The notes under the pieces were generated by a model. It saw only the letters and a program-made list of their open reading frames with translations. It made no database searches and was not told the DNA's origin. From Ktedonosporobacter sp. (GTDB taxonomy: Bacteria > Chloroflexota > Ktedonobacteria > Ktedonobacterales > Ktedonobacteraceae), in the NCBI GenBank assembly GCA_035293765.1, contig DATGMF010000079.1, positions 1 to 64,000 of the forward strand: a DNA stretch of 64,000 nucleotides. Reading direction: 5' to 3'. The position numbers and the translations under genes are program-made. Positions 15,562-48,265 of the stretch are shown piece by piece (positions within the stretch are counted from its first letter, which is position 1; each line of letters opens with the position of its first letter).

Positions 15562-16134
15562 TTACATTTCGTTGGTCAAGAGAATTGCTTCCGCAACTTC
15601 GCGCATGGATTTGCGGTTATTCATGCTGGCCTTCTGAATTTTACGGAAAGCCTCATTCTCCGAAAGCCCTTGCTTTTCCATGAGAAGTCCCTTCGCGCGC
15701 TCTACCACCTTGCGCGTCTCTAGCTGTTCGTTCAGGGTTCGGGCCTTCTCTTCAAGGGAGCGGAATTCGTTGTAGCGTGCTAACGCTACCTCGATAGCGG
15801 GAGCAACCTCGCTCTCGCGTAAGGGCTTCACGATGTAGTTCACTACGCCCGCTTCTTTGGCTCGTTCGACCAGAGGCTGATCTCCAAAAGCTGTGAGCAG
15901 CAACACCGGGGCGACTTTTTCCTGGGTGAGGGTCTCGGCGGCGCTAATGCCGTCTATGTCGGGCATGCGAATATCCATGATGATCAGGTCTGGTCGTAAT
16001 TCGCGAGCCAGATTGATGGCGCTTTGCCCGTCGCCCGCCTCCCCAACGACAAGGTAGCCCTGTCTGGTCAAGACGTCCTTTAAATCCATGCGCTGAATGG
16101 CTTCGTCATCTGCAATAATAATACGTGTTGGCAT
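15562..16134 (-). CDS. ANTAR-domain response regulator (receiver + RNA-binding antiterminator domain, AmiR/NasT type)
   Basis: Receiver RIIIADDEAIQRMDLKDVL...DLIIMDIRMPDIDGISA. ANTAR domain LEEKARTLNEQLETRKVVERAKGLLMEKQGLSENEAFRKIQKASMNNRKSMREVAEAIL. Start Met at 16134 with an upstream RBS; the track ORF is 5'-extended. Confidence 0.85.
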   Translation of the reverse strand: MPTRIIIADDEAIQRMDLKDVLTRQGYLVVGEAGDGQSAINLARELRPDLIIMDIRMPDIDGISAAETLTQEKVAPVLLLTAFGDQPLVERAKEAGVVNYIVKPLRESEVAPAIEVALARYNEFRSLEEKARTLNEQLETRKVVERAKGLLMEKQGLSENEAFRKIQKASMNNRKSMREVAEAILLTNEM

Positions 16135-16260
16135 AGGTTTCACCTCAAAGCCTCTCATCTCTATCCACCCGGGTAGTACTAAATTCTCTCCCTGTACAAA
16201 GAGTATAACATACTCCATCGGGTGAGTCGATAGGGTGAGCAAAAAACCTGATCCTCACGA

Positions 16261-17705: not shown

Positions 17706-18473
17706 CTAGCGTTTTTTCTCGCGGCGCTGGCTGGCTTTATATTCCTGATAGAGCTTGTCGCCTGATGTTACCGCCGGTGGGGCCTGTTCTCTGGCCTTGG
17801 TCCTGGGTTTGGCGGCAGGGGTCGGGGTGGGGGCGCCACTCATGCCGGTAAGGCTGCGGGGAATGAGGTCCAGCTTAGCCAGGATGACGAGAACGATCAC
17901 AAGCGTTGCCAGGAAGAGTAGCGTCGATACCTTAATAGGAATTGATGCGCCGAAAAGGTTGAGCGTCGTTAATAGGCGCTCCAGGCCCGCATTGGTCAGG
18001 AATGCCTGTTCCAGGCCGCCGAGGTAGCTTGCGCCGATCAGGTAAATAGCCATACCGAGAATATAGCGTGTTTTGAATGTGCCGGTTGGCCGCGCCGGTG
18101 TTCTGCTGGTGCTGGTTGCCGCACGCGTTGTTTTCGTCTCGGTTTTTTTTGCGCTGGCAGCTTTTTCAGGTTGTGTGACTTTCCCACGGGTCGCACGCGC
18201 CAGGCGGGCCTGCGCGACATCCACCTCTTTTGTTTTATTCTCCTGGTCATTCTTGCCAACCGTGGAGAAGAAGCCGGGCAGGCGGCGCGGCCTGGGCGCG
18301 GCTACAGGCTCAGCGGCTGAACTGGTTTCAGCTATGTCAACGGCGAGTTTTTCAGTATCGGGTGCTAACGTAGCGGTTTCTGGCCCCTCAGTCCGCTCTG
18401 TTACCAATTTGGGACGGGTGCGCTGGCTGCGAGCTCTGACTTTTTTACTGGTGCCGGGCTGTTCCAGACTCAT
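17706..18473 (-). CDS. hypothetical protein: Lys/Arg/Thr-rich N-terminal half, C-terminal membrane segment(s)
   Basis: 255-aa ORF with a highly basic low-complexity N-terminus and hydrophobic YILGMAIYLIGASYLGG / LLFLATLVIVLVILA helices. I recognise no known motif. Confidence 0.4.
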   Translation of the reverse strand: MSLEQPGTSKKVRARSQRTRPKLVTERTEGPETATLAPDTEKLAVDIAETSSAAEPVAAPRPRRLPGFFSTVGKNDQENKTKEVDVAQARLARATRGKVTQPEKAASAKKTETKTTRAATSTSRTPARPTGTFKTRYILGMAIYLIGASYLGGLEQAFLTNAGLERLLTTLNLFGASIPIKVSTLLFLATLVIVLVILAKLDLIPRSLTGMSGAPTPTPAAKPRTKAREQAPPAVTSGDKLYQEYKASQRREKKR

Positions 18474-18599
18474 GATTTACCTCGTTTGCATCTTGCTTTT
18501 AACATTTCTATCCAATCAACCACAATCTTGTCAAGAGGGGCACTCTCTAAAAGAAAAGGCAAGTGTCCCCTTTACTATACCACGTCCCACGACACTTCG

Positions 18600-18800
18600 T
18601 CAGCCTGTGTAGGAGAAGTTTCTTTCGCAACGGGTTGACAGGAGGTCGGCGCATTTCTCTCCTATCATCATGCAGGTCATGCATGGGTTCACGCTGATCA
18701 TGGTGGGAAAGATCGAGGCGTCGGCAACTCTCAGGTGGTGAACGCCTTTGACGCGCAGTTGGGGGTCAACGACGGTCATTGGATGGTCACTTGCGCCCAT
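18600..18800 (-). pseudogene. C-terminal remnant of a GMC-family oxidoreductase (choline dehydrogenase-like)
   Basis: [49 protein letters not shown] matches the GMC_oxred_C signature (G..VVD..L.V.G...LRV.DAS..P.....N....IAE.AAD.I). Only ~60 aa are present, where a full gene would be ~500 aa. Confidence 0.6.
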
Positions 18801-19120
18801 GCGACACGTTCCCGCCGGATGGTAGACCGTGTTGGCGGTGCGCCGGGCGTACTCCGAAAGCTCGCACTCATCCTGTACATGATTGCCAGGAGCGAGTTCT
18901 CTTTTGATCCAGCGTTATTTCCACAGGAGAAACCTCAATGCTCTCGGCTCCTAGTGGAGCCCTTCCCGATTGCTAAAGTATATCTCAGCTTTGGGAACTC
19001 TAGCAAAGTGCGCCATTTAGTGGGTGATGGATACATAGAGTCCTGGTTGCGGCAGGAAATCGCAACCAGGACTACAGGCGCACTCAATAAGGTACTCACC
19101 AGGACGGTGGTGATAGCAGC

Positions 19121-20980
19121 CTAAAAGGACGGGTTAGCGTTTTGGACCAGCGTATCAAACCCGGCCTGGAACCAGGCACCAGAGACCGGAGCGTTAGCCA
19201 TAGCCCCCGTCGGCAGGTTGTTGTTCAGCGGATCGCCGCCAAACGTCGGGTCGCACATGCGGTCGAAGCCCTTGCCCGTGGGATTCTGAGGCCCCGTTGG
19301 AATCAGCGAGCTTGAGCCATCAGATTCGCCAGGCGGCTTGATCCAGACGAACGCGGCAATATTAGGCATCGGATTCGCTTGTGGGCGAGCCCCGATGCCA
19401 CCAGGCTGGTTGCACCAGTTGCCGCGGCCAATGCGCTTGTCGATCCTGGTGGCGTTAACGAATGTGTTCAGATCCGTTGAGGTGCTCGGTCCTGTCGGGC
19501 GAGCGGAGCCTCCCCAACCGTTACGCGACGTGTCGATTAACATGCCAATGGTGCTCGGGAAGCCGGCGGCGATAAACGCATTGCGCATATCGGTGTCATA
19601 GGTGGCCTCGTCGATGTAGGTGTTCCACTGGTAGAAGGTGGCGGAGCGCACCGGCTGACCGTTGATCTGCTGATTGGCGGTCATGAACGGCTCGGTCGTC
19701 GGCGTATAGTTGGCGGTGTTGCTGATGAAGCCATCCACACTATTGACGCCGGCGGTCGTGCCCTTGATCGTGTTGCTGATCAGGGTCACAGCGGGCTGGA
19801 AGTTGCTGGTCCAGCCGAGCCAGCCGTCGTGGGCAATATCGACGTAGTTGTATACGTTCGGGATCGCGTGCAGCTTGTTCAGTGCGTATTGGACGCCCTG
19901 CACGTAAGCGCCGCTGGAGTTTGCCTCAGCGCACTTGGCGATATTCAGGTTGGTGACCAGGTTGGGCAGCGAGTCCGGCTCGATGATCGCGACGATGCGC
20001 AAATTGCTATATTTCGGCAGACTGAACGTGGCCGCAATCGGGTCGATATACTGTGATTTGTAGATCGACAGACCGTTATTGGCGACAGTTAGCTCGCCGT
20101 TAGACGCCAGGGCTGCGCAATCGCGGTCAGGCAGGTCGTAGATGACGAAAGTGATCACGACGGGCTGGCTGCCGGTGGCCTGGGACAGTGCCGCATCCAG
20201 GTGCCCTGCCAGGCTTCTGGCGTAGCCCGGACCGCCGCTGATCGCGCCCATGCTGTCGAGCCAGACGGCTGTCGAGTACTGAGCGACTTTGGCCTCCTGC
20301 GTCCCGAGTGTGCCTCCTACCGAAGCTGCGCCCGCTTTAACGTTCGCGGCCCAATCAGGGTTGATGTATCCCTGAGCGCCAACGTAAGGATTGGCAACGT
20401 GCGTGCCAGGCGGTGGCGGCGGGGTAGGTGTAGGCGTATTCGTCGGCGTCTGGGTAGGCGTGGGTGTATTCGTCTGAGTCGGAGTTGGCGTATTCGTTGG
20501 CGGCGGTGGCGTGCCATTACAGGCATTACCATTGATGGTAAAGCTTGTAGGTGCGGTATTGCTACCACTCCAGTTGGCGTTAAAGCCAGGAGGAGAGGTC
20601 ACCGTCGCGCCCGCCGCAACGGCTCCATTATAGGACAGGCTGGTGATCGTCACCGCTGCGCCATTTTGCGTAAAGTTGCCATTCCACAACTGCGTGATCG
20701 TCTGGCCGTTGGGGAACGAGAACTGCAAGCTCCAGCTCGTCCATGCTGAGGCGCTGGTATTTTGAATGGTGAAACTTGCCCCGAAGCCAGTGTTCCACTG
20801 GTTTGTTACTGTGTAGGTCACCACACAGGATGAATCTGCATGCGTAGCCGTAGCCTCTATGAACAAGCTGCTGATGAGCAAAGTCAGCACGCTCGCGAGC
20901 AAGACCAGACTTCGTAGCTTGTTTTTAGCGAGCAAACCTGGAAGTCTACTCTGTGAGATGCGACGCTTGATATCGCGCAT
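19121..20980 (-). CDS. GH6 cellulase (cellobiohydrolase/endoglucanase) with N-terminal CBM2 and Pro/Thr linker
   Basis: N-terminal CBM2 ([23 protein letters not shown]...[18 protein letters not shown]). PT-linker TPTPTQTNTPTPT. GH6 catalytic signature VIYDLPDRDCAA. RBS aaaggaggg precedes the Met at 20980; the track ORF is 5'-extended. Confidence 0.9.
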   Translation of the reverse strand: MRDIKRRISQSRLPGLLAKNKLRSLVLLASVLTLLISSLFIEATATHADSSCVVTYTVTNQWNTGFGASFTIQNTSASAWTSWSLQFSFPNGQTITQLWNGNFTQNGAAVTITSLSYNGAVAAGATVTSPPGFNANWSGSNTAPTSFTINGNACNGTPPPPTNTPTPTQTNTPTPTQTPTNTPTPTPPPPPGTHVANPYVGAQGYINPDWAANVKAGAASVGGTLGTQEAKVAQYSTAVWLDSMGAISGGPGYARSLAGHLDAALSQATGSQPVVITFVIYDLPDRDCAALASNGELTVANNGLSIYKSQYIDPIAATFSLPKYSNLRIVAIIEPDSLPNLVTNLNIAKCAEANSSGAYVQGVQYALNKLHAIPNVYNYVDIAHDGWLGWTSNFQPAVTLISNTIKGTTAGVNSVDGFISNTANYTPTTEPFMTANQQINGQPVRSATFYQWNTYIDEATYDTDMRNAFIAAGFPSTIGMLIDTSRNGWGGSARPTGPSTSTDLNTFVNATRIDKRIGRGNWCNQPGGIGARPQANPMPNIAAFVWIKPPGESDGSSSLIPTGPQNPTGKGFDRMCDPTFGGDPLNNNLPTGAMANAPVSGAWFQAGFDTLVQNANPSF

Positions 20981-21018
20981 TCTACCCTCCTTTGGGTGCA
21001 ACTAAGAAAAACGATGCT

Positions 21019-21176
21019 AGAAAGATACTTCCTCGCCGAGCGACAGAGCGGAGCTAGCTGTGCTAACAGCGTTGTCGCTCGGAATAGAAAGATACTTCCT
21101 TGCCGAGCGACACTCCCACGATGAGTCGGGGAGCTACAACGCTCAGTCGCTCGGCAAAGAAAGATCAGGAAGTACT
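21019..21176. repeat. three copies (2 direct, 1 inverted, plus a partial) of a ~27-bp element AGAAAGATACTTCC(T/C)(C/T)GCCGAGCGACA forming two GC-rich hairpins in the GH48-GH6 intergenic spacer
   Basis: Copies at 21019-21045 and 21086-21112; inverted copy at 21146-21176; partial inverted copy at 21071-21085. Arms ttgccgagcgac/gtcgctcggcaa pair across a 34-nt loop, starting 8 nt past the GH48 stop. Confidence 0.6.
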
Positions 21177-23687
21177 ACAGGACGAACCATTCAAAGTGAA
21201 TGCAGTAGGAGGTGAATTACTGCCACTCCAGTTGGCATTAAAGCCAGGAGGAGAGCTCAGCGTGGCCCCTGCCGGGATCGAGCCGTTGTAGGACAGGTTG
21301 GTAATCGTCACCTTCGCGCCATTTTGCGTAAAGTTGCCGTTCCACAGTTGCGTGATTGTCTGGCCGTTGGGGAAGCTAAATTGCAAGCTCCAGCCATTGA
21401 TCGCCGTCGTTCCGGTGTTGGTAATCGTGAAGCTGGCCCCGAAGCCGGTGTTCCACTGGTTCGTCACCGTGTAGATCACCTTACAAGTCGCGCTCGGGTT
21501 CGGAGTGGGACTTGGCGTCGGGCTCGGCGTGGGCGTAGGTGTTGATGTTTGTGTGGGCGTAGGTGTCGGTGTTGATGTCTGCGTGGGCGTGGGTGTAGGC
21601 GTCCCTCCTGATGGTGGGAACAGGATATCAACATCAGCCATTGCCATAGCGATATCGGCCTGAGCCCAGAAACGATGGTAGTTAAAGGTTGGCGCCGGAC
21701 CCCCATTCAGGTAGGCTTGCACCTTTGGAAAGGCGGGATCTGACGTATACTTGGGCCGCTCGGTAAGAAACGTCGTGGACGAATTGAGCGTCGCGCCCTG
21801 TGCATTGGTGCCTACCCAGTTCGCAGGAATAGAGACCGAGTCGTTGAACTGGTTATAGTCCTTGCGAGTTTCGGGGTTGGAGACGCCGATGCTGTCAGCA
21901 AAGTTGGCCCACATATCGGTCAGCAGTGTCTGAGCCAGGGTGCGCGACGTGGTGTCGCCAGATTTGGCGGCATAGTACAGCAGGGTCTTAGCCAGCGCAG
22001 CCGTGACGCCCACATCAGTAGTGGTGTCTACCACGGTCACATGCAGGCCCGCATTGTTCACCGAGGTCGTCCCGGCAGTCCAGTTCCCTCCCGGCTGACC
22101 GCTCCAGTTAAGGGTTGAGGGGATCGTGTAAGTGCCATTGGAGTTGACTGTCGTCTCTGACTTGGCCCAGGCGACCCATTTATCCAGGATCGACTTGGCC
22201 GTGGCATCGCCGGTCTCGAAGTAATACTCGGCAACCCGTTCCATTGACCATGCCTGGAAACCAAACCAGTTGTTGCTGGGCGGATCATGGTAGACCGGTT
22301 CGAAATCGTAGGCCATGCCGTAGAATGTGGGATCACCGGCAGGAGGCGTTCCATACTGTCCATTCCAACTATTGGTCGCGCCACCGGCGATGGCACCTTC
22401 AGCCGATTGCAGCCACTGATAGAACTGTAACATGCGTTGCAGGCTGGTGGCCCAGTCACCGGGAGCGGTTGGAGACTTGGGTTTGAGAGCGGGCACAGTG
22501 CTCAGCGCCCAGGCGGCCAGAGGGTTCTGGTAGCCCTGGTGGGCAGCGCTGGCACCGATACGCCAGGCCCAGCTACCGGCGGAAGGGAGCGCTCCGCCCC
22601 AGGCATAGTACCAGTCCAGCAAATAGGTTGAACTGTTTTTGCCGCTACCTGCCGGGCAACTCGTGCTTGTACAACCCATCGTCTTGAAGTATTTATCGTA
22701 GGTGCCATAGCGCAGATAGTCACCCATCTTCGATGCTTCGGCAACTTGAGATGCTATCGCGCTCCCCTGTCCTTGAGCAGTCGCCCAGGTATAGGCCCAA
22801 AAGGCTGCCTGGACCGTGCGCGCATCAGCATCAGGAGCATCGGTATAGCGCCACTGCTGCGAGTAGCCACCTCCTGAAGCCGAGGTGTTGAATAGCGTCA
22901 AAAAGCCGGTTCCATCGTTCCTGCCCCAGGTGAATGTCTCACATTCTGGTTGAACTACCGTCTTCCAGACCGACTCCGATGCGCCACGCTGGTACGAGTT
23001 GATGAAAGATGGCTTGGTCGTGCCATCCCCACAGTGACCGTAACCGTACCAGTTATCCGTGTCGAGCAGCCAGGGCATGCCAAAGATATCGGAAGTGCCG
23101 TAGGTCTGCTGGAGTTCGTTAGCCAGTGGATCTTGCCCCACCGACACAGATGTGGAGAGCTGGGTTGGATAATCGGTGATATTGGGTGACTCTGGCGCGT
23201 ACTGCGCGGGACTGCTGGGATTATAGCCGCTGTTGGTCGGCTGATCGGCGTGTGATGGAATCATATACTTATCCATCGTCGCCCAGGCGTTGATAAAGGG
23301 CTGCCAGTTCCCCGTCACCTGACCGTAGGTCGCCTCCAGCCAGATCCAGAAGCTGAACGTTTCTGACGTGGTTTCGTGGCCGTAGTCTGGCGCTTCTACT
23401 ATCAGGGTCTCCACTGAATGGTAGGGGATACCCAGAGGGCTAAAATACCCATTGGCCGGATTCTTGATCTCACCATAGAGAGTCAGGAAATGCTGGGTAT
23501 AGATGGATGTGGCATTTGCAGTTCGAGTAGCACTATGTGCTAGCGGAATACGTTGGCCTCCTAAAAATCCAGAGATCATCAGCGTCGTGACGATGATCCC
23601 CAGTAAAACATATTGAAAGATCCTCTTTGGAGTCACTCTAACCTCCTTTTTACACAATGCTAAACCCAGGTGGTATAGACCATCCAA
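21165..23687 (-). CDS. GH48 reducing-end cellobiohydrolase with C-terminal CBM2
   Basis: YFSPLGIPYHSVETLIVEAPDYGHETTSETFSFWIWLEATYG is the GH48 N-terminal signature (cf. Cel48/CelS). C-terminal PT-linker plus CBM2 ([25 protein letters not shown]...). Signal peptide present; TTG start. Confidence 0.9.
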   Translation of the reverse strand: MDGLYHLGLALCKKEVRVTPKRIFQYVLLGIIVTTLMISGFLGGQRIPLAHSATRTANATSIYTQHFLTLYGEIKNPANGYFSPLGIPYHSVETLIVEAPDYGHETTSETFSFWIWLEATYGQVTGNWQPFINAWATMDKYMIPSHADQPTNSGYNPSSPAQYAPESPNITDYPTQLSTSVSVGQDPLANELQQTYGTSDIFGMPWLLDTDNWYGYGHCGDGTTKPSFINSYQRGASESVWKTVVQPECETFTWGRNDGTGFLTLFNTSASGGGYSQQWRYTDAPDADARTVQAAFWAYTWATAQGQGSAIASQVAEASKMGDYLRYGTYDKYFKTMGCTSTSCPAGSGKNSSTYLLDWYYAWGGALPSAGSWAWRIGASAAHQGYQNPLAAWALSTVPALKPKSPTAPGDWATSLQRMLQFYQWLQSAEGAIAGGATNSWNGQYGTPPAGDPTFYGMAYDFEPVYHDPPSNNWFGFQAWSMERVAEYYFETGDATAKSILDKWVAWAKSETTVNSNGTYTIPSTLNWSGQPGGNWTAGTTSVNNAGLHVTVVDTTTDVGVTAALAKTLLYYAAKSGDTTSRTLAQTLLTDMWANFADSIGVSNPETRKDYNQFNDSVSIPANWVGTNAQGATLNSSTTFLTERPKYTSDPAFPKVQAYLNGGPAPTFNYHRFWAQADIAMAMADVDILFPPSGGTPTPTPTQTSTPTPTPTQTSTPTPTPSPTPSPTPNPSATCKVIYTVTNQWNTGFGASFTITNTGTTAINGWSLQFSFPNGQTITQLWNGNFTQNGAKVTITNLSYNGSIPAGATLSSPPGFNANWSGSNSPPTAFTLNGSSCSTS

Positions 23688-23837
23688 CTACTCTCCAGAC
23701 TGCGGTGTCGATGCCCCATGACAGAGCCAGCGTTGAGGAGAGCAACCGTTATCCGCTGCATAAGTTGTGGGTGGCGTCTCAGCCTGCTCTGCACCTCCTT
23801 CTCACTGTGATATTTCGAGCGTGAGTGAGGAAAAGAA

Positions 23838-23972
23838 TAATCGTAATCGTTTACGTGAACGTTTACATTAACGGGTAAGTAATGGTAAGATACGTGATGA
23901 ACTGGTTTTGATTGTAGTGTAGCTAATCATTTTTCTGCATACAACGACATCCACTAGACACACTATGGACAG
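23838..23972. promoter_or_regulatory. ~135-bp conserved upstream module (promoter + 5'-UTR operator candidates) of the GH48 gene; paralogous copy at 35455-35590
   Basis: Aligns with 35455-35590 at the same distance (~150-285 nt) from the respective start codons. Shared blocks: gtaatcgtt(t/c)acg..aacgtttaca, ctggttttg..tgtagtgtagctaatc, cactagacacact(a/g)tggacag. In gene orientation it gives TTGTAT-17-TACACT. Confidence 0.5.
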
Positions 23973-24080
23973 ATAGAAGCGGGCAGAACGGGAGTCAGGA
24001 GTACATTGTTGTGCTTAGGAGTTAGCGATCAAGACGTTACACAATCAGTTGTTACGACGAGGTCATTGGAGGACACGCGT

Positions 24081-25262
24081 ATGACACCGAATCGTCGTTT
24101 GAAACAGGCACGCGAACTACGAGGTTGGTCGCAGGCTAAAGTGGCGGAACAGCTTGGCACCGATGCTACCACAGTCAGCCGCTGGGAACGAGGTCTGTTT
24201 TCCCCCACCCCTTATTTTCGCGAGAAACTCTGCGCGCTCTTCGGCAAAAACGCTGCCGAATTAGGGCTGCTGGAAGGCGCAAACCAATCACAAGAGAGCA
24301 ATGGGAACGACTCCTCCCTACGCTCGTCTGCTTCCCTCCTCTTTCAAGCAGGTATAGAATGGCAGGCAAAGGAACTGCATGCAGGAAAAATCACTTCTCC
24401 CGTACCACCTTCCTGGCCGAAACGTACAGACACTTTCACCTACATTCTACAAAGTGCTACATACGATCAACAGGCTCATTTGCTGTGGGGAGAGGCATAT
24501 GTGCGAGCGTTGCAGGGGCAACACAAAGAAGCGCAACTGCTGGGCGAGGCCAGTCTGAGCGCGTTTGAAAGCGTCAATCATTTGAATGCGACAGCTATTC
24601 GTGAGTGGCTTGACCAGCGGGGGCTGGTCCCGCCCACGCCTCCTCCACCCAGTGGAGCCCCACCTCTGCCTGTGCTGCCAGAACAGCGCAAACGCGCTCC
24701 CAGCCAGATTTTGCGCGCAGGGGGCGTTAGCTTTGCTCTCATCCTGATCGTTATCGCATCACTTCTGCTCCCCGGCTTTTCTTTCAATCAGTTCCGCCTA
24801 CCAGCTCTGACCTCGTCAACGGCTCATGCTTTGTCTTCTATGAAGCAAGAGACACCGATGAGGCCGCTCACAGGAGTTGCCAGCATTGCCACTCCAACGC
24901 CCGTCATCGTTGCCACACCTACGCCTATGATCTCTCCTGCTCTGACGCCGCCGACCCCCTCTGCTCTGACGGCTGAGATTTCGCCGGCCAATTTAACGCC
25001 GCAGGATTGTATCCTGGAGGCGCTCGGCTATCGCTGTACACTGACGCTCTGGTTATATGGCAGCGGCCAGGGGCTATTTACCTGGGAGGCTAGCAGCTCA
25101 TTGGCGGCGCAATTCAATGCTAGCAAGGGAACCAGTATGCCAGGGCAGCCATCACAGGTAATTGTTTATATCAGAAGTTCTCCTGGTGAGAAAGGCCAGC
25201 TTATTTTTACTTTTACCTCGTCTGCGGATACATGTACGAAATCCGTCACCTGGCAGGGCTGA
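24081..25262 (+). CDS. membrane-anchored XRE-family HTH regulator with Pro-rich linker, one TM helix and ~170-aa extracytoplasmic C-terminal domain
   Basis: HTH: MTPNRRLKQARELRGWSQAKVAEQLGTDATTVSRWERG. TM: GVSFALILIVIASLLLPGFSF. Lies divergent from GH48 and upstream of GH9. Confidence 0.7.
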   Translation: MTPNRRLKQARELRGWSQAKVAEQLGTDATTVSRWERGLFSPTPYFREKLCALFGKNAAELGLLEGANQSQESNGNDSSLRSSASLLFQAGIEWQAKELHAGKITSPVPPSWPKRTDTFTYILQSATYDQQAHLLWGEAYVRALQGQHKEAQLLGEASLSAFESVNHLNATAIREWLDQRGLVPPTPPPPSGAPPLPVLPEQRKRAPSQILRAGGVSFALILIVIASLLLPGFSFNQFRLPALTSSTAHALSSMKQETPMRPLTGVASIATPTPVIVATPTPMISPALTPPTPSALTAEISPANLTPQDCILEALGYRCTLTLWLYGSGQGLFTWEASSSLAAQFNASKGTSMPGQPSQVIVYIRSSPGEKGQLIFTFTSSADTCTKSVTWQG

Positions 25263-25305
25263 ACCACCCCTGCCGGGTAATGCTGCTGACCATGTGCTTA
25301 GTAAC

Positions 25306-25351
25306 TGTCTAGTGTGTGTTCTTGTATCTGGATTATCATGCTAGGTACAGT
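25306..25351 (+). promoter_or_regulatory. candidate GH9 promoter sharing the TGTCTAGTGTGTG upstream box and TTGTAT -35 with the GH48 / GH-A modules
   Basis: tgtctagtgtgtg (25306-25318), TTGTAT (25322-25327), 18-nt spacer, TACAGT (25346-25351); ~80 nt upstream of the GH9 ATG. Confidence 0.4.
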
Positions 25352-25432
25352 ACATCATACGCTCTTGTTTTATTTGGGAACATCTATGAAAAGGGGATGG
25401 GTACCCTCTATACCCTGAAAGGACAGGGGAAT

Positions 25433-27892
25433 ATGATGCCGGTCAAGAAGCTCGGTACACACAGGTTGAAGCAACCATCTACCATCCTGCTGCTACCTCT
25501 GCTCTGCATGATTCTGCTGGCGACTGTTCTCATAAGCCCGCTACGCTCAGCGATTGTCCATGCCAGCCCAACGTTTAACTACGGGGAGGCATTGCAGAAG
25601 GCCATATACTTTTATGAAGAGCAGAGTTCTGGCCCTAAACCATCCTGGAACCGTGTGCCCTGGATCGGCAACTCAGCCATGAACGACGGCTCAGACGTTG
25701 GCCTTGATCTGACCGGTGGCTGGTATGACGCCGGGGACCACGTCAAATTTGGCTTGCCGATGGCCTGGTCTGTCACTATGCTCGGTTGGGGCGTCATTGC
25801 GAACCGCGACGCCTATGTGCAGGATGGTCAACTGCAGTATATCTTGAATAATATCAAATGGGCCACCGATTACTTCATCAAAGCGCATCCCTCTCCCGAT
25901 GTATTGTACGGACAGGTTGGTGACCCTAATGCGGATCACTCCTTCTGGGGACCGGCAGAGGTGATGCAGATGGCCCGTCCCGCTTACAAGATCGACGAGA
26001 GTTGTCCAGGCTCCGATCTGGCAGGGGAGACGGCTGCCGCAATGGCCTCGGCCTCGATGGTTTTCCAACCGACAGATCCAACGTACGCGAGTACCCTCCT
26101 CACTCATGCCAAGCAGCTCTACTCATTTGCCGACAATTTCCGTGGCAAGTACGACTCCTGTATTACCGCAGCCAGTGGCTTCTACACCTCATTCAGTGGC
26201 TATAACGACGAACTGGTCTGGGGAGCCATCTGGCTCTATCTGGCAACCGGTGATACTGCGTATCTGACCAAAGCTGAGAATTATTACGTCAATCTCAGCA
26301 ATCAGCCGCAGACGAATATCAAATCCTACCAGTGGACGATTAGCTGGGATGATCAATCTTATGGCTGCTATATTTTGCTGGCTGAGATCACCGGCCTACA
26401 GCAGTACAAGGATGACGCTCAGCGTTTCCTCGATTGGTGGACGGTTGGAGTAAACGGGCAGAAAGTCAGCTACTCGCCTGGAGGGGAGGCTTTTCTCAGC
26501 CCGTGGGGCTCGCTACGCTACGCGGCCAATACGGCCTTCTTAGCCCTGAATTATGCCGACTATCTGGGCACGAGCAACCCGCTGTACTCGCGCTATCATG
26601 ATTTTGCTGTGCAGCAGATCAACTACATCCTGGGGGCGAATCCGCGCAATTGCAGCTACATGGTCGGCTTCGGCTCCTGCTATCCTCAGACGCCGCACCA
26701 TCGCACCTCGCATGGTTCCTGGGATAATAACATCACGGACCCGGTCTATCAGCGTCATATCCTCTACGGGGCAATGGTGGGCGGACCCAGTTCTGCCGAC
26801 GACTCCTTTACCGACAATCGCCAGACGTTCCAGACCAACGAGCCTGCCGACGATTATAACGCGGCTCTTACAGGTGCATTAGCACGCCTGTACAAAGAGT
26901 TTGGCGGTAGCCCGGCGGCTTCGCTGCCGGACAAGGCCAAAGACGACGATGAAATTTACGCCATGGCCGCCGTCAATGCTTCGGGGACGAACTTCACGGA
27001 GATCAAGGCCATCTTCGTCAACAAGACCGGCTGGCCTGCTCGCGTCACCAGCAATCTCTCTCTGAACTACTACTTCACGCTGGAGCCGGGAGTGACGCCG
27101 AGCATGCTTACGTTGAACACGAATTATACCGAGTGTGGCAGCCACCTCTCCGGGCCAACGCAGTTCTCTGGCAACATCTACTACATCACGGTGAGCTGCG
27201 CTGGTACCCTCATTTATCCAGGTGGGCAAAGCAATTTCCAGAAGCAGGTGCAGTTCCGCATTACCAGCTCGGGCGCCTGGGACCCTACCAACGACTGGTC
27301 CTACCAGGGGGTAGCCACGCCGGCAGGTGCGCAACCGGTCAAAGTGACGAATATGCCCGTTTTTGATGGCAGTACGCAGGTCTGGGGCGCGACGCCTGGC
27401 AGTACCGGACCCACGCCGACGCCAACTCCTGGTGTGACCCCAACGGTCACGCCAACGCAAACGCCAGTGCCTACTCCAAATCCAACACCAGGCCCGACGC
27501 CGAGTCCGACGCCCATGCCAACTCCAACGCCGAACCCGACGCCAAGTCCGACGCCCACCCCAGGCGCGAGCTGCAAGGTGGTCTACACGGTGACGAATCA
27601 GTGGTCCACCGGCTTTGGGGCGAGCTTCACGATCACCAACACGGGCACGACGGCGATTAATGGCTGGAGCCTGCAATTCAGCTTCGCCAACGGGCAGACC
27701 ATCACGCAGTTATGGGGCGGTAACTTCACGCAGACAGGAGCGAAGGTGACCATTACCAATCTCTCCTATAACGGCGCAATCCCGGCGGGGGCGACGCTCA
27801 GTTCCCCTCCTGGCTTCAACGCCTCCTGGAGCGGCACCAATGCGCCTCCAACCGCGTTCACCCTGAACGGAGCATCTTGTAGTACTTCCTGA
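25433..27892 (+). CDS. GH9 processive endoglucanase with CBM3c, PT linker and C-terminal CBM2 (Cel9A/E4-like architecture)
   Basis: GH9 signature [25 protein letters not shown]3c-like block [45 protein letters not shown] linker [37 protein letters not shown]2 [25 protein letters not shown].... RBS gggga precedes ATGATG at 25433. Confidence 0.9.
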
Positions 27893-27900
27893 GAGCAGAG

Positions 27901-28234
27901 GGCAAGCGCAAGGCCCCCTCCCAGGCCCATGCACCTCCCCTTGCCCCTACCGGTTCAGGGTTTACGTACGTGTGGGGAGACGACGAACGTATGGGTAGGG
28001 GCAATGCCTTGCGCTTGCCCTGCTCGCTTCCCCGACCCATGCCCATCCCTGCGACCCATCCAAACGGTTTGTACAAGGTTCCACCGCAGGCCGTAGGGGC
28101 AAGGGGACGGGCAGACGGGGATGTGGGGGCCTTGCACTTGCTTGCCCTGCTGGCTGCACGAGGGGAAACGCAGGCCGTAGGGGCAAGGGGACGGGCAGAC
28201 GGGGATGTGGGGGCCTTGCACTTGCTTGCCCTGC
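27901..28234. repeat. GC-rich intergenic repeat cluster: two 65-bp tandem direct repeats plus imperfect inverted/partial copies
   Basis: Unit gcaggccgtaggggcaaggggacgggcagacggggatgtgggggccttgcacttgcttgccctgc at 28086-28150 and 28170-28234. An inverted relative lies at 27901-27955 (gcaagcgcaaggccccc...ccccttgcccctac) and a partial one at 27993-28040. Confidence 0.65.
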
Positions 28235-28256
28235 CAGACCTGAAAGGAGATACAAC

Positions 28257-29204
28257 TTGCTTGCACGAAATGCAAATGGCAGCCACTATGCTACTCGTTT
28301 ACGCGTCCTGTTGTTACTGGCGATCTTGCTTTTCCCCCTGCTTGTAAGCTGTGGTGCAGATTCTCAGAATACTCCTCTGTCCGATAAGCCAACTATGCAA
28401 GCCGGACAGGTCTCCGCGACGCAGCCTGTGCCAACCTCCGCACCTCTGTCACCCACCTCAACTGCACAGCCATCAATCCTGCAAGGGCCGACAAATTTTC
28501 TCCTCACCCCCCCTCTCGCCTTTTCCAGTGCGAGCGGAGCTACTATGGACAATAACGGGGCGATCACTCCACTGGACGCGAATACGATAAAAACACAGAT
28601 TACTGCGGAACTGAAACGCCTCCTTTTTGTGGTAGACAGCCATAATGGCGTCAAAGTCTACAGCCCGGGAACATCACCGGTCACAGCCCAGGTAACACAC
28701 AATGCCGACGGCAGCATAGCTATCAACTATCAACAGACGGTAGACTCTGAAGCGGGGTCTGTAGCCATCACATTCGATGGGGTGCTGCTCAAGCAGCAAA
28801 TAACCGTGACCTATGATCAACAATATTCGCCTTCAATACTCATTAATGCCAATGCCAGCGAGGTAACGGTTGCCCTGACCGCGGCTGTGCGCTGGGTATC
28901 AGCAAACCAGATACCCGCCGCACCGGGGAACGGGAGCTATCGGCTCACGAGTAGCGGTGGCATTGCTCTCGCCTGGTCGGCGGGCCAGAATGCTGCCGCG
29001 TATAATGTCTATCGTCTGATCTCTGACCGCGATCAGCAGTTTCAGCTCCTGGCTACGGTAAAAGCTACCGCATATACCGACAACTCAGCCGCCGCCGCAC
29101 AATATGTCAACTCCCCAAAGGGCATCACCTACGCGGTCTTCTCCATTGGGCCAACCAATGTCGAAAATCCCGGGGGGATGGTTATAGTTGTGGCGACACA
29201 GTAG
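28257..29204 (+). CDS. hypothetical lipoprotein (lipobox LVSC) with Ser/Thr/Pro-rich linker
   Basis: MLARNANGSHYATRLRVLLLLAILLFPLLVSCGADSQN.... TTG start preceded by RBS aaaggaga; no recognisable catalytic domain. Confidence 0.55.
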   Translation: MLARNANGSHYATRLRVLLLLAILLFPLLVSCGADSQNTPLSDKPTMQAGQVSATQPVPTSAPLSPTSTAQPSILQGPTNFLLTPPLAFSSASGATMDNNGAITPLDANTIKTQITAELKRLLFVVDSHNGVKVYSPGTSPVTAQVTHNADGSIAINYQQTVDSEAGSVAITFDGVLLKQQITVTYDQQYSPSILINANASEVTVALTAAVRWVSANQIPAAPGNGSYRLTSSGGIALAWSAGQNAAAYNVYRLISDRDQQFQLLATVKATAYTDNSAAAAQYVNSPKGITYAVFSIGPTNVENPGGMVIVVATQ

Positions 29205-29247
29205 GAAGTTTAGAGGAGTCAGGCTTCTCGAAGATAGGTGCATTTGC

Positions 29248-29287
29248 GAGTCACAATCCCCACGAAGCTTCGTGGGGATTGTGACTC
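29248..29287. promoter_or_regulatory. perfect 40-bp palindrome (20-bp arms) between convergent lipoprotein and anti-sigma genes
   Basis: gagtcacaatccccacgaag|cttcgtggggattgtgactc. Neither strand has a following U-tract, so it may be a protein-binding site rather than a simple intrinsic terminator. Confidence 0.5.
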
Positions 29288-29293
29288 AAAAAC

Positions 29294-30787
29294 TCAGGAA
29301 AGCTGCCAGATGCTGACTGTGTTCTGCAAGAGCTCCTTCTGACCCAGTTCAGCAGAAATGTTGGTCGTAGTGGCAAGCATTGTGCTGTCCGGTGACCAGG
29401 CCAGTGTCGGAATAAAAGCAGGCTTACTGGTCTTGCCAAAGGTCGCAACAATCTTTTGTGCTTTCACATCCCAGATGTGGATAGCGCTGCCGCTCTCAGC
29501 CAGATATTTCCCATTTGGTGACCAGGCCAGCGAGCCAATAACCTTTGCCCAGGTATCGCTATCTTTAAAGGATGCGGTGAGTTGACCGCTTGCAACCGAC
29601 CAGATTTGCACCTCGGGAGTATCAGGTAAGCCCAGTGCAAGAAAAGCTCCATCCGGTGACCAGGCCAGTGCGCTCACGCTCACCAGATTAGCAGGCTGGT
29701 GGTAAGCAATGCTGTTGACCAGGTTACCACTCGCAATATTCCAGATCTCCACGCCGCCATTTACCGTCTGTACAGCGACATACTTCCCATCGGGGGAGAT
29801 GGGTAACATGCCAACATTCTGACCCAGAAGCTTTTTACCAGGACTCAATGTGATCGTCGTGCGAATGAGCGCTCCGGTGCTGGCATTCCATATCTGCATG
29901 AGTATAGGGCTAGCGGTGCCCGATGCTGCGAAGTTACCGGCCTTCGGCGTGAATGTCTGGACGGCAGAAATTATTGTTTCATTGGATAACCATGCTGACT
30001 GCTCAATAGCATTGTTATGCCCATTCCCTTGAAAGCTGGCGATGACACGTCCAGTGGTGGCATCGAGCACTTCTGCTTCGTATGCCCCGGTCAGCACTAA
30101 CAGGCGTTTCCCATCTGGTGACCAGGCAGCCTGCTGCGCATACGGTAATAAGTTTGCGGATTTGGTTGCACAGTTTTGTGCGGATACCGTTTTGAGATTA
30201 TAATAGGTCACGGCAAGCTGGCCGGTAGGAGACCAGTCCAGCGTGGGCTGGTGCAGAAACGGATAGCCGGTCCCGTTATCTGAGAAACTACATAATAGCA
30301 TCCCGGAGCTCAATGCTTTTTGCACTGTACCCGTCTGCGTTGTCGGCTTGTTATGAGTAGTCGATTGCCGCAACGAGGAAGAGAGCAGTACCCAGCTCAC
30401 GATGATGATCAAAACGGCTGCTACAGCCACAGCAGTGCTTAATATATTGCGGAGAGCGTGACGAGAGCGCCTCGTAGACCATGAATCGGAAGTCGAGAAT
30501 CTCGTTCCCTGCGAAGTATCTTCTTGCATTGTTTTTCCTTTTCTCAAAAACTGCTCGCCTTCAGGTGACTTGTGCCGTGCCTCCTGAAGCAGAGCAGGAT
30601 GCCCCTGACTCTGAACAAAGCGATTCCATATTCGCTCCAAAGACTGCTCGTTTTCTCGGGCATAGGTCTGGGAACTCGCATACAAAGCCTGGATCAAGCG
30701 GCGCTCGTCCCGTGAAAGATCTTGTGACCAGCGTTTAGTCTGTGCATCTATTGCCTCTGGGGTAAAGCCGTTCTCATGTTCTTTCAT
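29294..30787 (-). CDS. anti-sigma-factor-like membrane protein with extracytoplasmic WD40/PD40 beta-propeller
   Basis: 125-aa cytoplasmic N-domain, TM helix AVAVAAVLIIIVSWVLL, then repeated AWSPDG / LAWSPNGKYLA / LAWSPDSTML propeller blades. Overlaps the upstream ECF sigma gene by 4 nt. Confidence 0.7.
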   Translation of the reverse strand: MKEHENGFTPEAIDAQTKRWSQDLSRDERRLIQALYASSQTYARENEQSLERIWNRFVQSQGHPALLQEARHKSPEGEQFLRKGKTMQEDTSQGTRFSTSDSWSTRRSRHALRNILSTAVAVAAVLIIIVSWVLLSSSLRQSTTHNKPTTQTGTVQKALSSGMLLCSFSDNGTGYPFLHQPTLDWSPTGQLAVTYYNLKTVSAQNCATKSANLLPYAQQAAWSPDGKRLLVLTGAYEAEVLDATTGRVIASFQGNGHNNAIEQSAWLSNETIISAVQTFTPKAGNFAASGTASPILMQIWNASTGALIRTTITLSPGKKLLGQNVGMLPISPDGKYVAVQTVNGGVEIWNIASGNLVNSIAYHQPANLVSVSALAWSPDGAFLALGLPDTPEVQIWSVASGQLTASFKDSDTWAKVIGSLAWSPNGKYLAESGSAIHIWDVKAQKIVATFGKTSKPAFIPTLAWSPDSTMLATTTNISAELGQKELLQNTVSIWQLS

Positions 30788-31332
30788 CGTTTCTCACCTT
30801 TTTCCCAGTCTTTGTAGAACCTCCGCAGGCTCTGGAGTGTACGGAACAGGATCATCCGTACTGCTCCCGCGCTTTTTTCGACAGCAGGGGCTATTTCCTC
30901 ACATTTCAGGCCATGGCCAAACCGCAAGCGCAACACCTCTTGCTGAAGTTCTGGCAGGGCTCGTATCGTGCTAGAAAGCCAGATGAACTCTTCGCGTTGA
31001 AGACTGATCTGCTCTGGAGCCTGGTGCTCGTCTTCACAAAATGACTCGGAGAGCCATTCTATGGGAACGTATGGGTGACGAATGGAACGCCGGTAGTAAT
31101 CCACAACTTTGTTGCGAGTAATGGTCCAGAGCCAGGCCTCTTGCTTTTTCGCATCGAAGGTCGGAAACCGTTTGTTCTGTAAAACAGAGAGAAAGACCTC
31201 TAGCACAATATCTTCAGCGTCTTCGCGTGATGCAGTTTGCTGATAGACATAGGCGAAAAGGCTCGAAGCATAATGGCGGTAGAGTTCCGCATAGAGTGAG
31301 TGCTCCAAAAGTTCAGCTTCCTTGTGTTGCAT
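30784..31332 (-). CDS. ECF-type RNA polymerase sigma-70 factor
   Basis: Region 2 YRHYASSLFAYVYQQTASREDAEDIVLEVFLSV and region 4 LPELQQEVLRLRFGHGLKCEEIAPAVEKSAGAVRMILFRTLQSLRRF. Confidence 0.85.
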   Translation of the reverse strand: MQHKEAELLEHSLYAELYRHYASSLFAYVYQQTASREDAEDIVLEVFLSVLQNKRFPTFDAKKQEAWLWTITRNKVVDYYRRSIRHPYVPIEWLSESFCEDEHQAPEQISLQREEFIWLSSTIRALPELQQEVLRLRFGHGLKCEEIAPAVEKSAGAVRMILFRTLQSLRRFYKDWEKGEKR

Positions 31333-31551
31333 ATCTATCCTCTAGAGGTTTTTGAGATCTCATCAGGTATCTCGTCCAGAAGCGAAAAATGTCACACACT
31401 CAAAAAGAGAAATCAAAAACGGAGAGAAAAATGATGAAGCTGCCGAGGAAAAAAGAGGATAAGAATCTACTCAGAAAGAGCAAGCTACAGAGCTATGAGC
31501 ATAGGCGCCCATAGCTCTGCATATACAAACCAGACCGTTCCGGTACAAAGA

Positions 31552-33087
31552 TTACGATGTACTACAGGCCGCTCCATTGAGCGTGAAGGCGGTGGGCACC
31601 GTGTTGCTGCCACTCCAGTTGGCATTAAAGCCTGGAGGCGAGCTCAGCGTCGCTCCCGCCGGAATAGAGCCGTTATAGGACAGGTTGGTGATCGTTACCG
31701 TTGCGCCACTTTGCGTAAAATTCCCATTCCACAGTTGCGTGATCGTCTGCCCATTGGCGAAGCTAAAGCGCAAAGTCCAGCCGTTGATCGCCGTCGTGCC
31801 CGTGTTGGTGATCGTGAAGCTCGCCCCAAAGCCGGTATTCCACTGATTGGTGATCGTATACACCACTTTGCAGCTCGCGCCGCCGGTTGGGGTCGGTGTC
31901 GGGCTTGGGGTAGAGGTGGGAGTTGCTGTTGGCGTATTCGTGGGCGTGTTTGTCGGTGTGGGCGTAGGCGTGCCGCCACCACCTAGAGAAAGAAGGTGGG
32001 CTTTATACCCTGCCCCATAGTTCGTGGGAGTGCCGGTATAGTCGGCAAGCAGCGACGGCGTGCCGCCGCAATTCCCCGTCACCGTCCAGGTCCAGGCCAT
32101 GTAGCCGGTGCTGTGCTGATCGAGCCAGGTCGTGAGCGTATTAATAAAGCCTGAGGCACAGTCATTCTCGCCGATCTCGCCAGCCAGAACGGGCACCTGT
32201 GCGATTACCGGCGCGATTTGTGAGTCCCAACAACTTGTATTAGAACAGGCATTAAAGTTGTAGATATGCGTCGAGGCCGCCAGATTGTTCTGCGGATCGC
32301 TAGGCTTGTTTGCCAGCCATTGCGAGAGATCATTGGAGAAGGCCAGTCCTCCCAGCATCAGTACGTTGGTCGCACCGGTCGCACGGACCGTATTGACCAG
32401 CGTTTGCATCCCCGCCACAGCGAAACCAACGCCTGAGCATGCGCCGGACTGGGGAGCCGTGCTGCCGTTGAGCCAGCAGGACCAGCTCACGTCGTGCGGC
32501 TCATTGTACAGATCGAAGATCACCGAAGAGTTGCTCTTAAATGTATTGGCAACCGAGGTCCAGAAGGCGGGAGCGTGATCCAGGTCTGGCATCATCTGCT
32601 GACCGGTGGACTGATTGGTACCGGAATTATTCCAGTGCAAATCCAGGATCACGATCTGGCCGTTGGCGTTTAGTAAATTCACCCAGTTGACAATATCTGA
32701 CTGATACTGGGCCGCGGTTTTGTTGTTGGCGGGAAATCCATTGATACCAAGCCAGCAGTCTTCGTTCAGGGGGACACGGACGATATTGGTGCCCCAGGCG
32801 ACCATAGCACTGACAGTAGCCTGATCAATTGGCCCATCAAAGTCGGTGGGAGCGTTGGTCGCGCTCTTGGTACACTGGTATTCTGTGCCCATGCGATCAA
32901 CGCCGTGAGGCACAATGACATGACCACTGCCATCCTCAAGTTTATTGCCAACGACGTGCAGCCCCGTCGGCACGCTGGCTGCTTTGACCGAGCCTGGCGG
33001 TCGTGATGTGAAGATCATTGCCGCCGAGCAGAGAAGCAGAGCTACAACGGCGAGCATCAATAGTCGAAAGCGTTTTTTGCTTTGCAT
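31552..33087 (-). CDS. GH5 endoglucanase with C-terminal CBM2
   Basis: GH5 acid/base motif VIFDLYNEPHD; nucleophile region VLAGEIGENDC. PT-linker plus CBM2 ([25 protein letters not shown]...). Signal peptide present; RBS aaggagga. Confidence 0.9.
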   Translation of the reverse strand: MQSKKRFRLLMLAVVALLLCSAAMIFTSRPPGSVKAASVPTGLHVVGNKLEDGSGHVIVPHGVDRMGTEYQCTKSATNAPTDFDGPIDQATVSAMVAWGTNIVRVPLNEDCWLGINGFPANNKTAAQYQSDIVNWVNLLNANGQIVILDLHWNNSGTNQSTGQQMMPDLDHAPAFWTSVANTFKSNSSVIFDLYNEPHDVSWSCWLNGSTAPQSGACSGVGFAVAGMQTLVNTVRATGATNVLMLGGLAFSNDLSQWLANKPSDPQNNLAASTHIYNFNACSNTSCWDSQIAPVIAQVPVLAGEIGENDCASGFINTLTTWLDQHSTGYMAWTWTVTGNCGGTPSLLADYTGTPTNYGAGYKAHLLSLGGGGTPTPTPTNTPTNTPTATPTSTPSPTPTPTGGASCKVVYTITNQWNTGFGASFTITNTGTTAINGWTLRFSFANGQTITQLWNGNFTQSGATVTITNLSYNGSIPAGATLSSPPGFNANWSGSNTVPTAFTLNGAACSTS

Positions 33088-33273
33088 GTATTCCTCCTTA
33101 ATGCATTTCCGCTTGACATCTTCGGATTCGATGGTATACTTCCCCTCAAAAGGGGCGGCGGAAGCCAGTGGCTATCACGACCTGCTTGAGGGTACTGAAA
33201 ATTAATCAGGCGAGGTGAATGTGACGTCATAAAAAACCGCTGTACGTACATAGCTAGGGAAGCCCGTTACAAA

Positions 33274-33295
33274 GGCGACTGAGCATTCAGTCGCC
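33274..33295 (-). terminator. short hairpin downstream of the GH-A gene (weak U-tract)
   Basis: Minus RNA reads GGCGACUGA-AUGC-UCAGUCGCC-UUUGU, 21 nt after the stop. Confidence 0.4.
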
Positions 33296-33316
33296 TTGCC
33301 ACAAGCCAGGGATTGC

Positions 33317-35314: not shown

Positions 35315-35454
35315 TGCAATTCTCTTTCCTTTAAACCTTACTTTGTAAGCTCACTGTGCAAGTTTTCGTAAGTCCCCTGCGGGGATGCTGCTATTCGCGG
35401 CGCCGAGAGGAGTTTTGGAACCCCCCCAGGCCCTGGGGTCACACTAAGAAGGAA

Positions 35455-43067: not shown

Positions 43068-48265
<5,198 letters not shown>

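Follow-up and report, generated by a model that had tools for sequence, protein, structure and literature searches.

The closest described systems are those of the actinomycete repressors CebR and CelR (Streptomyces, Thermobifida fusca). These LacI/GalR-family proteins respond to cellobiose or cello-oligosaccharides; their palindromic site is found upstream of many cellulase genes as well as at the repressor's own transporter/beta-glucosidase locus (PMC4898821). As for the arrangement of operators, Ravcheev et al. (2014) found that overlapping LacI-family sites are conserved in some orthologous groups; such sites, ∼13 bp apart, precede 110 operons and are known to function in the case of E. 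coli GntR, which at gntKU has, like the locus described below, two CG-centred palindromes shifted by about 12–13 bp (PMC4052901).

The little-studied Ktedonobacteria, Chloroflexota that are abundant in soil, possess large sets of secreted cellulases; our literature searches found no paper on regulation of cellulase genes in this group. We analyzed a stretch of 64,000 nucleotides (the window) of an uncultured member of Ktedonobacteraceae (Chloroflexota), for which the nearest GH48 of an isolate is that of Ktedonobacter robiniae (84% identity). Two non-coding stretches of the window are best explained as copies of a composite promoter–operator cassette serving genes of secreted (hemi)cellulases in Ktedonobacteria; we give this explanation as a whole, with the mechanism outlined below, a probability of about 0.7.

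The logic of the cassette appears to mirror that of CebR/CelR, extending a known principle rather than overturning it. As in the actinomycetes, a repressor gene, an ABC transporter and a beta-glucosidase are linked and sites are present before cellulase genes: LacI-type sites stand before GH48, GH10, GH5 and GH51-like genes as well as before a LacI–transporter–GH1 operon. Still, there are differences in box sequence, phased tandem layout, leader position, coupling to repeats and phylum. The CebR/CelR 14-bp box, TGGGAGCGCTCCCA, is not the site found here; the Ktedonobacteria site is made of GTAAnCGnTnAC units. The units abut in 12-bp phase, with two of them at cellulase genes and three to four at the LacI gene; the operator has a fixed position, 49 nt after the -10, and is coupled to phased repeats; the binding protein of the transporter is SBP_bac_5, not the CebE type; and the phylum is Chloroflexota, where the regulon is predicted from sequence. 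The cassette is a real and well-conserved regulon signature, and a mechanistically unsurprising one.

Two copies of a promoter–operator module in the window

The stretches 23838–23975 and 35455–35590 align block for block, with 105 identical positions over 136–138 nt in a global alignment. When the GH48 upstream region was compared with the whole window by blastn, 35457–35587 was the sole significant match (E 1e-19), and significant non-coding similarity within the window is confined to this pair. The first-pass annotation, made from the letters of the window, had proposed that a module of ∼135 bp is duplicated upstream of two cellulase-type genes, and these figures show the duplication to be real. 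The 25-mer TGTAAACGTTNNCGTNAACGATTAC has only two sites in the window (0.00 expected by chance), as has TGYC-N7-TGYC-N7-TGYC (0.11 expected); GATTAGCTACACTACA occurs in the window in the two modules only. G+C content is 36–40% in the modules against 55% in the window; at about 55% the genome, which had been called GC-rich, is not especially so.

The likeness between the copies extends to stretches outside the motifs, e.g. ACAGACAAAACCAG, and ends where the modules do; no alignment is seen between the proximal 5′ UTRs or between the coding regions. The duplication thus stops short of coding sequence, and the blocks are neither part of a duplicated coding segment nor restricted to this window (see below). 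Spacing had been described as identical with respect to the start codons. Inside the module it is indeed the same, the hexamers being separated by 17 nt and the operator following the -10 after 49 nt in both copies, but not outside it: the operator stands 206 nt from the start codon at GH48 and 142 nt from it at the second gene. A search for terminal inverted repeats flanking the repeated unit found none, only the internal palindromes and the neighbouring terminator hairpin. No further module copy or single operator was found before the GH9, GH5 and GH6 genes of the window.

The features of the two modules, read with the gene, and the genes of interest here are as follows.

Module 1 (GH48)
23939–23971, minus: three direct repeats in 11-bp phase, the third overlapping the -35
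23971–23961, minus: repeat 1, TGTCCATAGTG
23960–23950, minus: repeat 2, TGTCTAGTGGA
23949–23939, minus: repeat 3, TGTCGTTGTAT, overlapping the -35
23916–23944, minus: promoter candidate, -35 TTGTAT at 23944–23939, 17-nt spacer, -10 TACACT at 23921–23916
23867–23915, minus: leader spacer of 49 nt from -10 to operator, partly conserved (ACAATCAAAACCAG; ATCTTAC)
23843–23866, minus: tandem LacI-type operator GTAAACGTTCAC GTAAACGATTAC, two CG-centred palindromes
23862–23891, plus: opposite-strand promoter-like site from the promoter scan, TTTACA-18-TAAGAT, TG-extended, with its -35 inside the operator

Module 2 (GH51-like)
35553–35585, minus: direct repeats TGTCCACAGTG, TGTCTAGTGAC and TGTCATTGTAT, at 35585–35575, 35574–35564 and 35563–35553, repeat 3 overlapping the -35
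35530–35558, minus: promoter candidate, TTGTAT at 35558–35553, 17 nt, TACACT at 35535–35530
35457–35480, minus: tandem operator GTAAACGTTACC GTGAACGATTAC, 49 nt after the -10
35607–35650, minus: hairpin with 14-bp arms that ends the upstream gene (35687–36595) and forms the 5′ boundary of module 2

Genes
21165–23636, minus: GH48 + CBM2 cellobiohydrolase gene, target of module 1; start GTG 23636 after AAGGAGG
19121–20980: GH6+CBM2 gene, after GH48
33317–35314, minus: 665-aa secreted hydrolase, target of module 2; distant GH51-like catalytic domain (clan GH-A) + CBM2
24081–25262, plus: XRE-family protein anchored in the membrane; gene divergent from GH48, with GH9 after it
15562–16242: ANTAR protein
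3511–4656: MerR-B12 protein
30784–31332: ECF sigma factor

Copy 1 lies in the divergent intergenic region between GH48 and the XRE-family gene, and copy 2 begins directly past the terminator hairpin of the gene upstream. The start of GH48 at GTG 23636 is agreed upon by gene callers on identical contigs and by the AAGGAGG ribosome site. A hairpin followed by TTT is located past the stop codon of the GH51-like gene, before the GH5+CBM2 gene. In both copies the operator consists of two abutting 12-bp palindromes GTAAnCGnTnAC with a central CG in each; in module 1 the palindromes are 12 bp apart, centre to centre, and would cover roughly positions +43 to +66 of the inferred transcript. The upstream box GTGTGTCTAGTG, which the first-pass annotation had singled out, is real; it is the middle one of three TGTC repeats in 11-bp phase. 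We also noticed an 11-nt inverted repeat bracketing the -35 (23915–23925 / 23955–23965); it is absent in Thermogemmatispora, and we took it as coincidental and dropped it as an element.

The cassette in other genomes and metagenomes

Complete cassettes precede the GH48 genes of K. robiniae, Thermogemmatispora onikobensis and T. tikiterensis, the Thermogemmatispora cassettes having the TGCC/TGCY version of the repeats. Other full cassettes stand before the GH51-like orthologue in another Ktedonobacteraceae genome and before a GH10+CBM2 xylanase gene, likewise within Ktedonobacteraceae. At the GH48 promoter of Thermosporothrix, we recognized by eye three 11-bp-phased TGT(C/T) repeats running into TTGCAT-18-TATAAT.

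The scan of metagenomes with the repeat–promoter pattern produced 28 loci, of which we accept 27; although the search pattern did not include the first repeat, CTGnnCA, this repeat is conserved in the metagenome loci. Over all sequences fetched, the pattern had 33 distinct matches, the doubtful L158 among them. Leaving out L158 and the copies too near a contig end, we counted 32 distinct repeat–promoter modules, from Ktedonobacteria genomes and soil metagenomes. These 32 modules all face the gene they precede in the same orientation; the genes downstream are GH48, GH51-like, GH10+CBM2, GH5+CBM2 and CBM3+GH5 genes, genes for a 152-aa secreted or lipoprotein-like protein, and GT2 glycosyltransferase genes.

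The tandem operator is present in 19 of the 33 pattern matches, 47–61 nt (most often 49) after the -10. About 40% of the modules lack it, among them the modules of GT2 genes and those of another class of GH48 leader, where repeats and promoter are kept; this fraction counts against our explanation. On the other side, the operator is also found with ordinary consensus promoters. As the repeat–promoter part and the operator each occur separately, the cassette is modular.

Across these copies, motif columns are conserved and spacers have diverged, with orientation and internal spacing fixed over at least three families and six gene families. The earlier interpretation, in which the two stretches form a cis-regulatory module common to a (hemi)cellulase regulon, is supported; its proposals for the regulators of the palindromic half-sites are not, as discussed below. 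The pattern of repeats and promoter together with the tandem operator could serve as a code by which genomes and metagenomes are searched for co-regulated plant-cell-wall enzymes.

In housekeeping (sigma-70-type) promoters the two hexamers stand 16–18 nt apart, upstream of the TSS. The promoter candidate TTGTAT-17-TACACT agrees with the consensus at 7 of 12 positions; it is under the threshold of the consensus promoter scan and was not called by it, a point to be set against our explanation. In all 32 distinct modules it has kept its place, spacing and orientation, which supports the candidate as first proposed, and the only -10 variants in the copies examined are TACACT, TACAAT and TATACT. 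Since consensus promoters of the same clade read TTGACA/TATACT, the -35 of the module is sub-optimal.

Phased direct repeats would be recognized as two or more repeats with 10–11-bp periodicity at the -35; here, three TG(T/C)C repeats are exactly 11 bp apart, and all three are kept in Ktedonobacteraceae and Thermogemmatispora. Three direct repeats, spaced by one turn of the helix and running into a weak -35, make up the typical layout of an activator-dependent promoter (OmpR/PhoB, SARP or CarH type). The sites of the Pho box and other OmpR/PhoB regulators, of SARP and of CarH/LitR resemble the module in just this respect, 11-bp direct repeats that reach a weak -35. CTGTCAT, the repeat of the pho box, is like the third repeat of module 2, CTGTCAT, but the pho box has a different register relative to the -10.

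The tandem operator and a candidate repressor

Operators of the LacI family are even palindromes with a central CG and TGWAANCG half-sites (PMC4052901); TGTAAACGTTCACG and CGTAAACGATTACG both have this form. Each 14-mer fits the LacI/cre-type consensus TGWAANCGNTNWCA, with CG at the centre.

We scanned genomes, one per species, for tandem sites with the pattern GTAAMCGNTNMCGKRANCGNTTRC and found at least 119 sites in many phyla; hosts among the matches listed include Streptomyces, Cytophagaceae, Paenibacillus and other Bacillota, several Chloroflexota and others. A LacI-family ORF starts between -60 and +250 nt from the site (median 39 nt) in 50 of the 119 loci listed, and a LacI gene is present within the 8-kb block in 62 of them. 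The first-pass annotation had named the XRE and ECF proteins of the cluster as candidate regulators for the palindromic half-sites; the half-sites are of LacI type, and this frequent abutment of tandem sites and LacI genes speaks against that assignment. Genes neighbouring the tandem sites differ from case to case (e.g. fucose isomerase, 6-phosphogluconate/dihydroxy-acid dehydratase), and the tandem site is therefore a general arrangement of LacI-family sites rather than the mark of one regulon. Some tandem sites in Cytophagaceae have no LacI gene nearby, which is another point against our explanation. In Ktedonobacteria, the tandem sites among the matches listed are located before GH48, GH74-like, GH51-like, GH10, GH5 and LacI genes. 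In comparison with the E. coli GntR sites, the Ktedonobacteria arrays have up to four units and are joined, in the cassette, with a separate repeat element. The wide spread of 12-bp-phased tandem LacI-type sites across phyla may be of interest to those who study DNA binding by LacI/GalR proteins.

Pfam searches on 30 ORFs found no LacI gene within the window; the regulators seen in this set were the XRE protein, the ECF sigma/WD40 pair, the ANTAR response regulator, the MerR-B12 protein and BTAD proteins. Most likely, the repressor is a LacI protein of the CebR/CelR kind whose gene lies outside the window. LacI genes of Ktedonobacteraceae have a promoter TTGACA-17-TATACT followed, 5 nt on, by three to four 12-bp units, as in the array GTAACCGGTTAC GTAAACGGTTTC GCAATCGGTACC GGTTCCGGTTAC; sites at a LacI promoter, the sign of autoregulation, are thus present in the same lineage, outside the window. 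In three loci (L164, L165 and L167) the gene order is LacI, SBP_bac_5, two permeases, GH1. A fourth, L166, has LacI, SBP_bac_5 and two permeases, the next gene being cut at the contig end with no family on record; the metagenome sample that gave this locus also yielded a contig with the window's exact GH48. We infer that the best repressor candidate is this autoregulated LacI gene heading the SBP_bac_5 transporter–GH1 operon of Ktedonobacteraceae.

Several observations weigh against this choice. The candidate LacI locus is tied to the organism of the window by the shared sample alone. The operators of the window read GTAAACG, while the candidate gene's own sites are mostly GTAACCG. There are several LacI paralogues in Ktedonobacteria, one close paralogue being without an array; LacI dimers 12 bp apart should, moreover, clash sterically. 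The close paralogue, P0186, was considered as the repressor and dropped, its promoter having no array and its neighbours being unrelated to sugar use.

In the mechanism we propose, a promoter of the housekeeping sigma factor with a weak -35 would receive help from a factor that binds the phased repeats. A LacI-family repressor, in whatever number of dimers may be seated on each 24-mer, would sit on the tandem operator and stop transcription about 45–65 nt into the leader; it would be released by a soluble breakdown product, e.g. cellobiose or cellodextrins, as CebR/CelR are in actinomycetes. The repressor would be encoded elsewhere in the genome, with the LacI gene that heads the SBP_bac_5 transporter–GH1 operon as the best candidate. 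Candidates that can be tested are thereby named, the LacI protein of the LacI–transporter–GH1 operon as repressor along with a candidate activator, to which we now turn.

The XRE neighbour and other explanations

The XRE gene is the divergent neighbour of nearly every GH48 module of Ktedonobacteraceae, whether the operator is present or not, and is never found beside modules of other gene families. Such a position fits a regulator encoded beside one of its own targets, by proximity only. All named matches among the 163 XRE homologues belong to Ktedonobacteria. The protein is predicted to have an almost invariant HTH, a conserved helical domain, one transmembrane helix and disordered Pro/Thr-rich linkers; its C-terminus is confidently predicted as a beta-sandwich of generic Ig/PapD type. 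Foldseek with the C-terminal domain of the model returned only generic Ig/PapD-like sandwiches, from which no ligand could be inferred. Because of its conserved divergent position beside GH48, we regard the XRE protein as a candidate binder for the upstream repeats, and for these only.

In Thermogemmatispora, the XRE–GH9 pair is divergent from a GH74-like gene, and the XRE promoter, TTGCTA-17-TACAAT, has the tandem operator starting 8 nt past its -10. This placement makes the XRE gene itself a probable target of the LacI-type repressor and a probable member of the regulon. The plus-strand site TTTACA-18-TAAGAT of the window overlaps the operator in the same manner as in Thermogemmatispora; it could drive the XRE–GH9 pair.

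One could speculate that the cassette is a two-input gate built as a cascade, with an XRE activator on the repeats and a LacI repressor on the operator. The membrane XRE protein would sense insoluble or extracellular polysaccharide by its extracytoplasmic Ig-like domain and activate through the TGTC repeats; the LacI protein would sense imported cello-oligosaccharides, bind to the 12-bp-phased arrays, possibly as a cooperative assembly of several dimers, and block the cellulase leaders as well as the XRE gene's own promoter. Taken jointly with all these details, the scheme is doubtful. If it were true, a membrane-tethered XRE activator on direct repeats, or LacI dimers stacked at 12 bp, would each be an unusual mode of DNA binding.

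A further possibility, improbable in our estimation, is that the neighbouring XRE protein binds the palindromic half-sites themselves (perhaps the upstream box too) and is the dedicated regulator of the cluster. The divergent XRE gene at almost all Ktedonobacteraceae GH48 modules would be in line with this, as would Thermogemmatispora, where XRE adjoins a GH74-like gene having the tandem site and where the site, 8 nt past the -10 of the XRE promoter, looks like autoregulation; a near-invariant HTH across the family also implies a conserved DNA target. However, the tandem site is pan-bacterial and found beside LacI genes in the 50 loci mentioned above, while the XRE family is confined to Ktedonobacteria, and the site fits the LacI consensus with its central CG. 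Arrays of the same units are located on LacI promoters of Ktedonobacteraceae with no XRE gene nearby, and, conversely, GH48 modules L007, L011, L138, L144 and L157 have the XRE neighbour and no palindromes.

Binding of a LacI-type repressor to DNA is also to be preferred to a function of the palindromes in RNA, i.e. as an attenuation or stability hairpin of the 5′ leader or as the target of an RNA-binding regulator such as the ANTAR protein (15562–16242). The site does lie within the inferred transcribed leader, and folding is strong for the version at Thermogemmatispora GH48 (-24.1 kcal/mol, z -4.3); the copies of the window, however, fold weakly and differently from one another (-5.4 kcal/mol, z -0.18; -7.9 kcal/mol, z -2.4), and any palindrome automatically yields hairpin potential. 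An Rfam scan of 18000–37000 with E up to 1 gave no match at the modules, only weak palindrome matches at 29243–29292. LacI and XRE promoters, too, have two to four of these units in a row, placed at the -10 or directly behind it, where a hairpin role is less natural; we consider an RNA element very unlikely.

Least credible is that the likeness only reflects history, with a piece of promoter duplicated through recombination or by a small mobile element and no regulation in common, as the non-motif likeness of the copies and the common descent of the cassette that it suggests might allow, or that the promoter depends on the ECF sigma factor (30784–31332), whose gene and that of the anti-sigma factor are downstream of the genes of module 2 on the same strand: a trace would leave unexplained the fixed orientation and internal spacing among diverged spacers and the lack of terminal inverted repeats, and, as to the ECF pair, the hexamers are unlike the usual ECF AAC/CGT type, the pair is absent from other module-bearing loci, hairpins stand between GH5 and the ECF gene, and nothing ties the pair to the module.

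Two more regulators were noted for their proximity only: an OmpR-type response regulator adjoins the candidate LacI operon, and the MerR-B12 protein (3511–4656) is encoded in the window itself.

Variants of the module and an added target

Considering the loci with a module 5′ of a GH48 gene, we saw that in a second class of leader (L007, L011, L138, L144, L150 and L157) the phased repeats and the promoter candidate were kept, and the tandem operator was exchanged for a different conserved leader, reading aaaggaggg...ttgagcttattgaggcgc...ttttttcgcgctgat. This leader may contain a short ORF 5′ of the GH48 gene or act as an RNA element. At another GH48 locus, L134, the operator itself was a variant, GTAATCGCTCAT ATT ATGAGCGGTTAC; this 27-bp palindrome retained the outer half-sites, with the inner ones replaced and a 3-nt spacing.

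The full module, operator included, also preceded a gene for a 152-aa protein at four loci (L142, L145, L147 and L152; the operator of the last had three units). The protein carried a lipoprotein-type signal (…LTGCG…), and its sequences from these loci had no Pfam match; it is a regulon member of no known family.

Abutting, 12-bp-phased palindromes of LacI type were widespread among genome contigs (at least 119 matching loci, L012–L130). A perfect 24-bp palindrome, GTAAACGCTTACGTAAGCGTTTAC, was common to Streptomyces species among the matches listed; at the loci checked it adjoined a LacI gene (L017 and L049) or a gene for a dehydratase of the dihydroxy-acid/6-phosphogluconate type (L023). Those matches of Cytophagaceae type (Flectobacillus, Arcicella and one MAG) for which the ORFs were listed had GTAAACGTTTACGGAAACGTTTAC within T-rich flanks and no LacI gene adjoining the site, the two scanned neighbours being an amidohydrolase and an amino-acid permease.

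Regulators near the module and near the LacI operon

The XRE protein (24081–25262, plus strand) is predicted to be membrane-anchored: the predicted layout runs from an HTH through a helical domain, one TM helix and a Pro/Thr linker to an Ig-like beta-sandwich at the C terminus, in which two Cys are conserved. The family was confined to Ktedonobacteria, with GH48 and GH9 as conserved neighbours of the gene.

In the Ktedonobacteraceae loci with the candidate repressor operon (LacI, transporter and GH1 genes; L164–L167), the gene of an OmpR-type response regulator adjoined the operon on the opposite strand, together with a histidine kinase gene, at about 1721–4145. Judged by this proximity, the pair is a possible source of a factor binding the phased repeats. 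The binding sites of CarH/LitR-like regulators are direct repeats of 11 bp that lie across a −35; a protein of such architecture is encoded in the window, and no link between it and the module was found in this analysis:

3511–4656, MerR-type HTH fused to B12-binding domains (CarH/LitR-like)

Repeats and other gene stretches in the window

Several repeats were located outside the module:

21018–21045 and 21085–21112, repeat copies in the tandem 67-nt units of the GH48–GH6 spacer
28085–28150 and 28169–28234, direct repeat of 66 nt 3′ of the GH9 gene, the two copies 100% identical and their starts 84 nt apart
29243–29292, palindromic element between convergent genes

The tandem 67-nt units lay within 21002–21164, and every unit contained the inverted repeat GCCGAGCGAC...GTCGCTCGGC. 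The spacer was 184 nt long in the window versus 318 nt on contigs with an identical GH48 gene; as the difference is exactly two units, the copy number varies among close strains. The palindromic element is probably a bidirectional terminator hairpin; either strand gave weak Rfam matches, to CRISPR-DR31 and to a model of a miRNA, at E values of about 0.6–0.9.

An apparently broken large regulator was seen at 36861–40036, where a 186-aa ORF, which carries the last part of a BTAD domain and the beginning of an AAA_16 domain, was followed by a 164-aa ORF, a DUF6036 nucleotidyltransferase gene and a TPR protein. The stretch 43068–55468, with ∼62% G+C (∼54% elsewhere) and very long ORFs (1732, 1022 and 1332 aa), may be a biosynthetic gene cluster; beyond it, at 60498–62631, lie genes for a BTAD (SARP-like) regulator and a DUF1702 protein.
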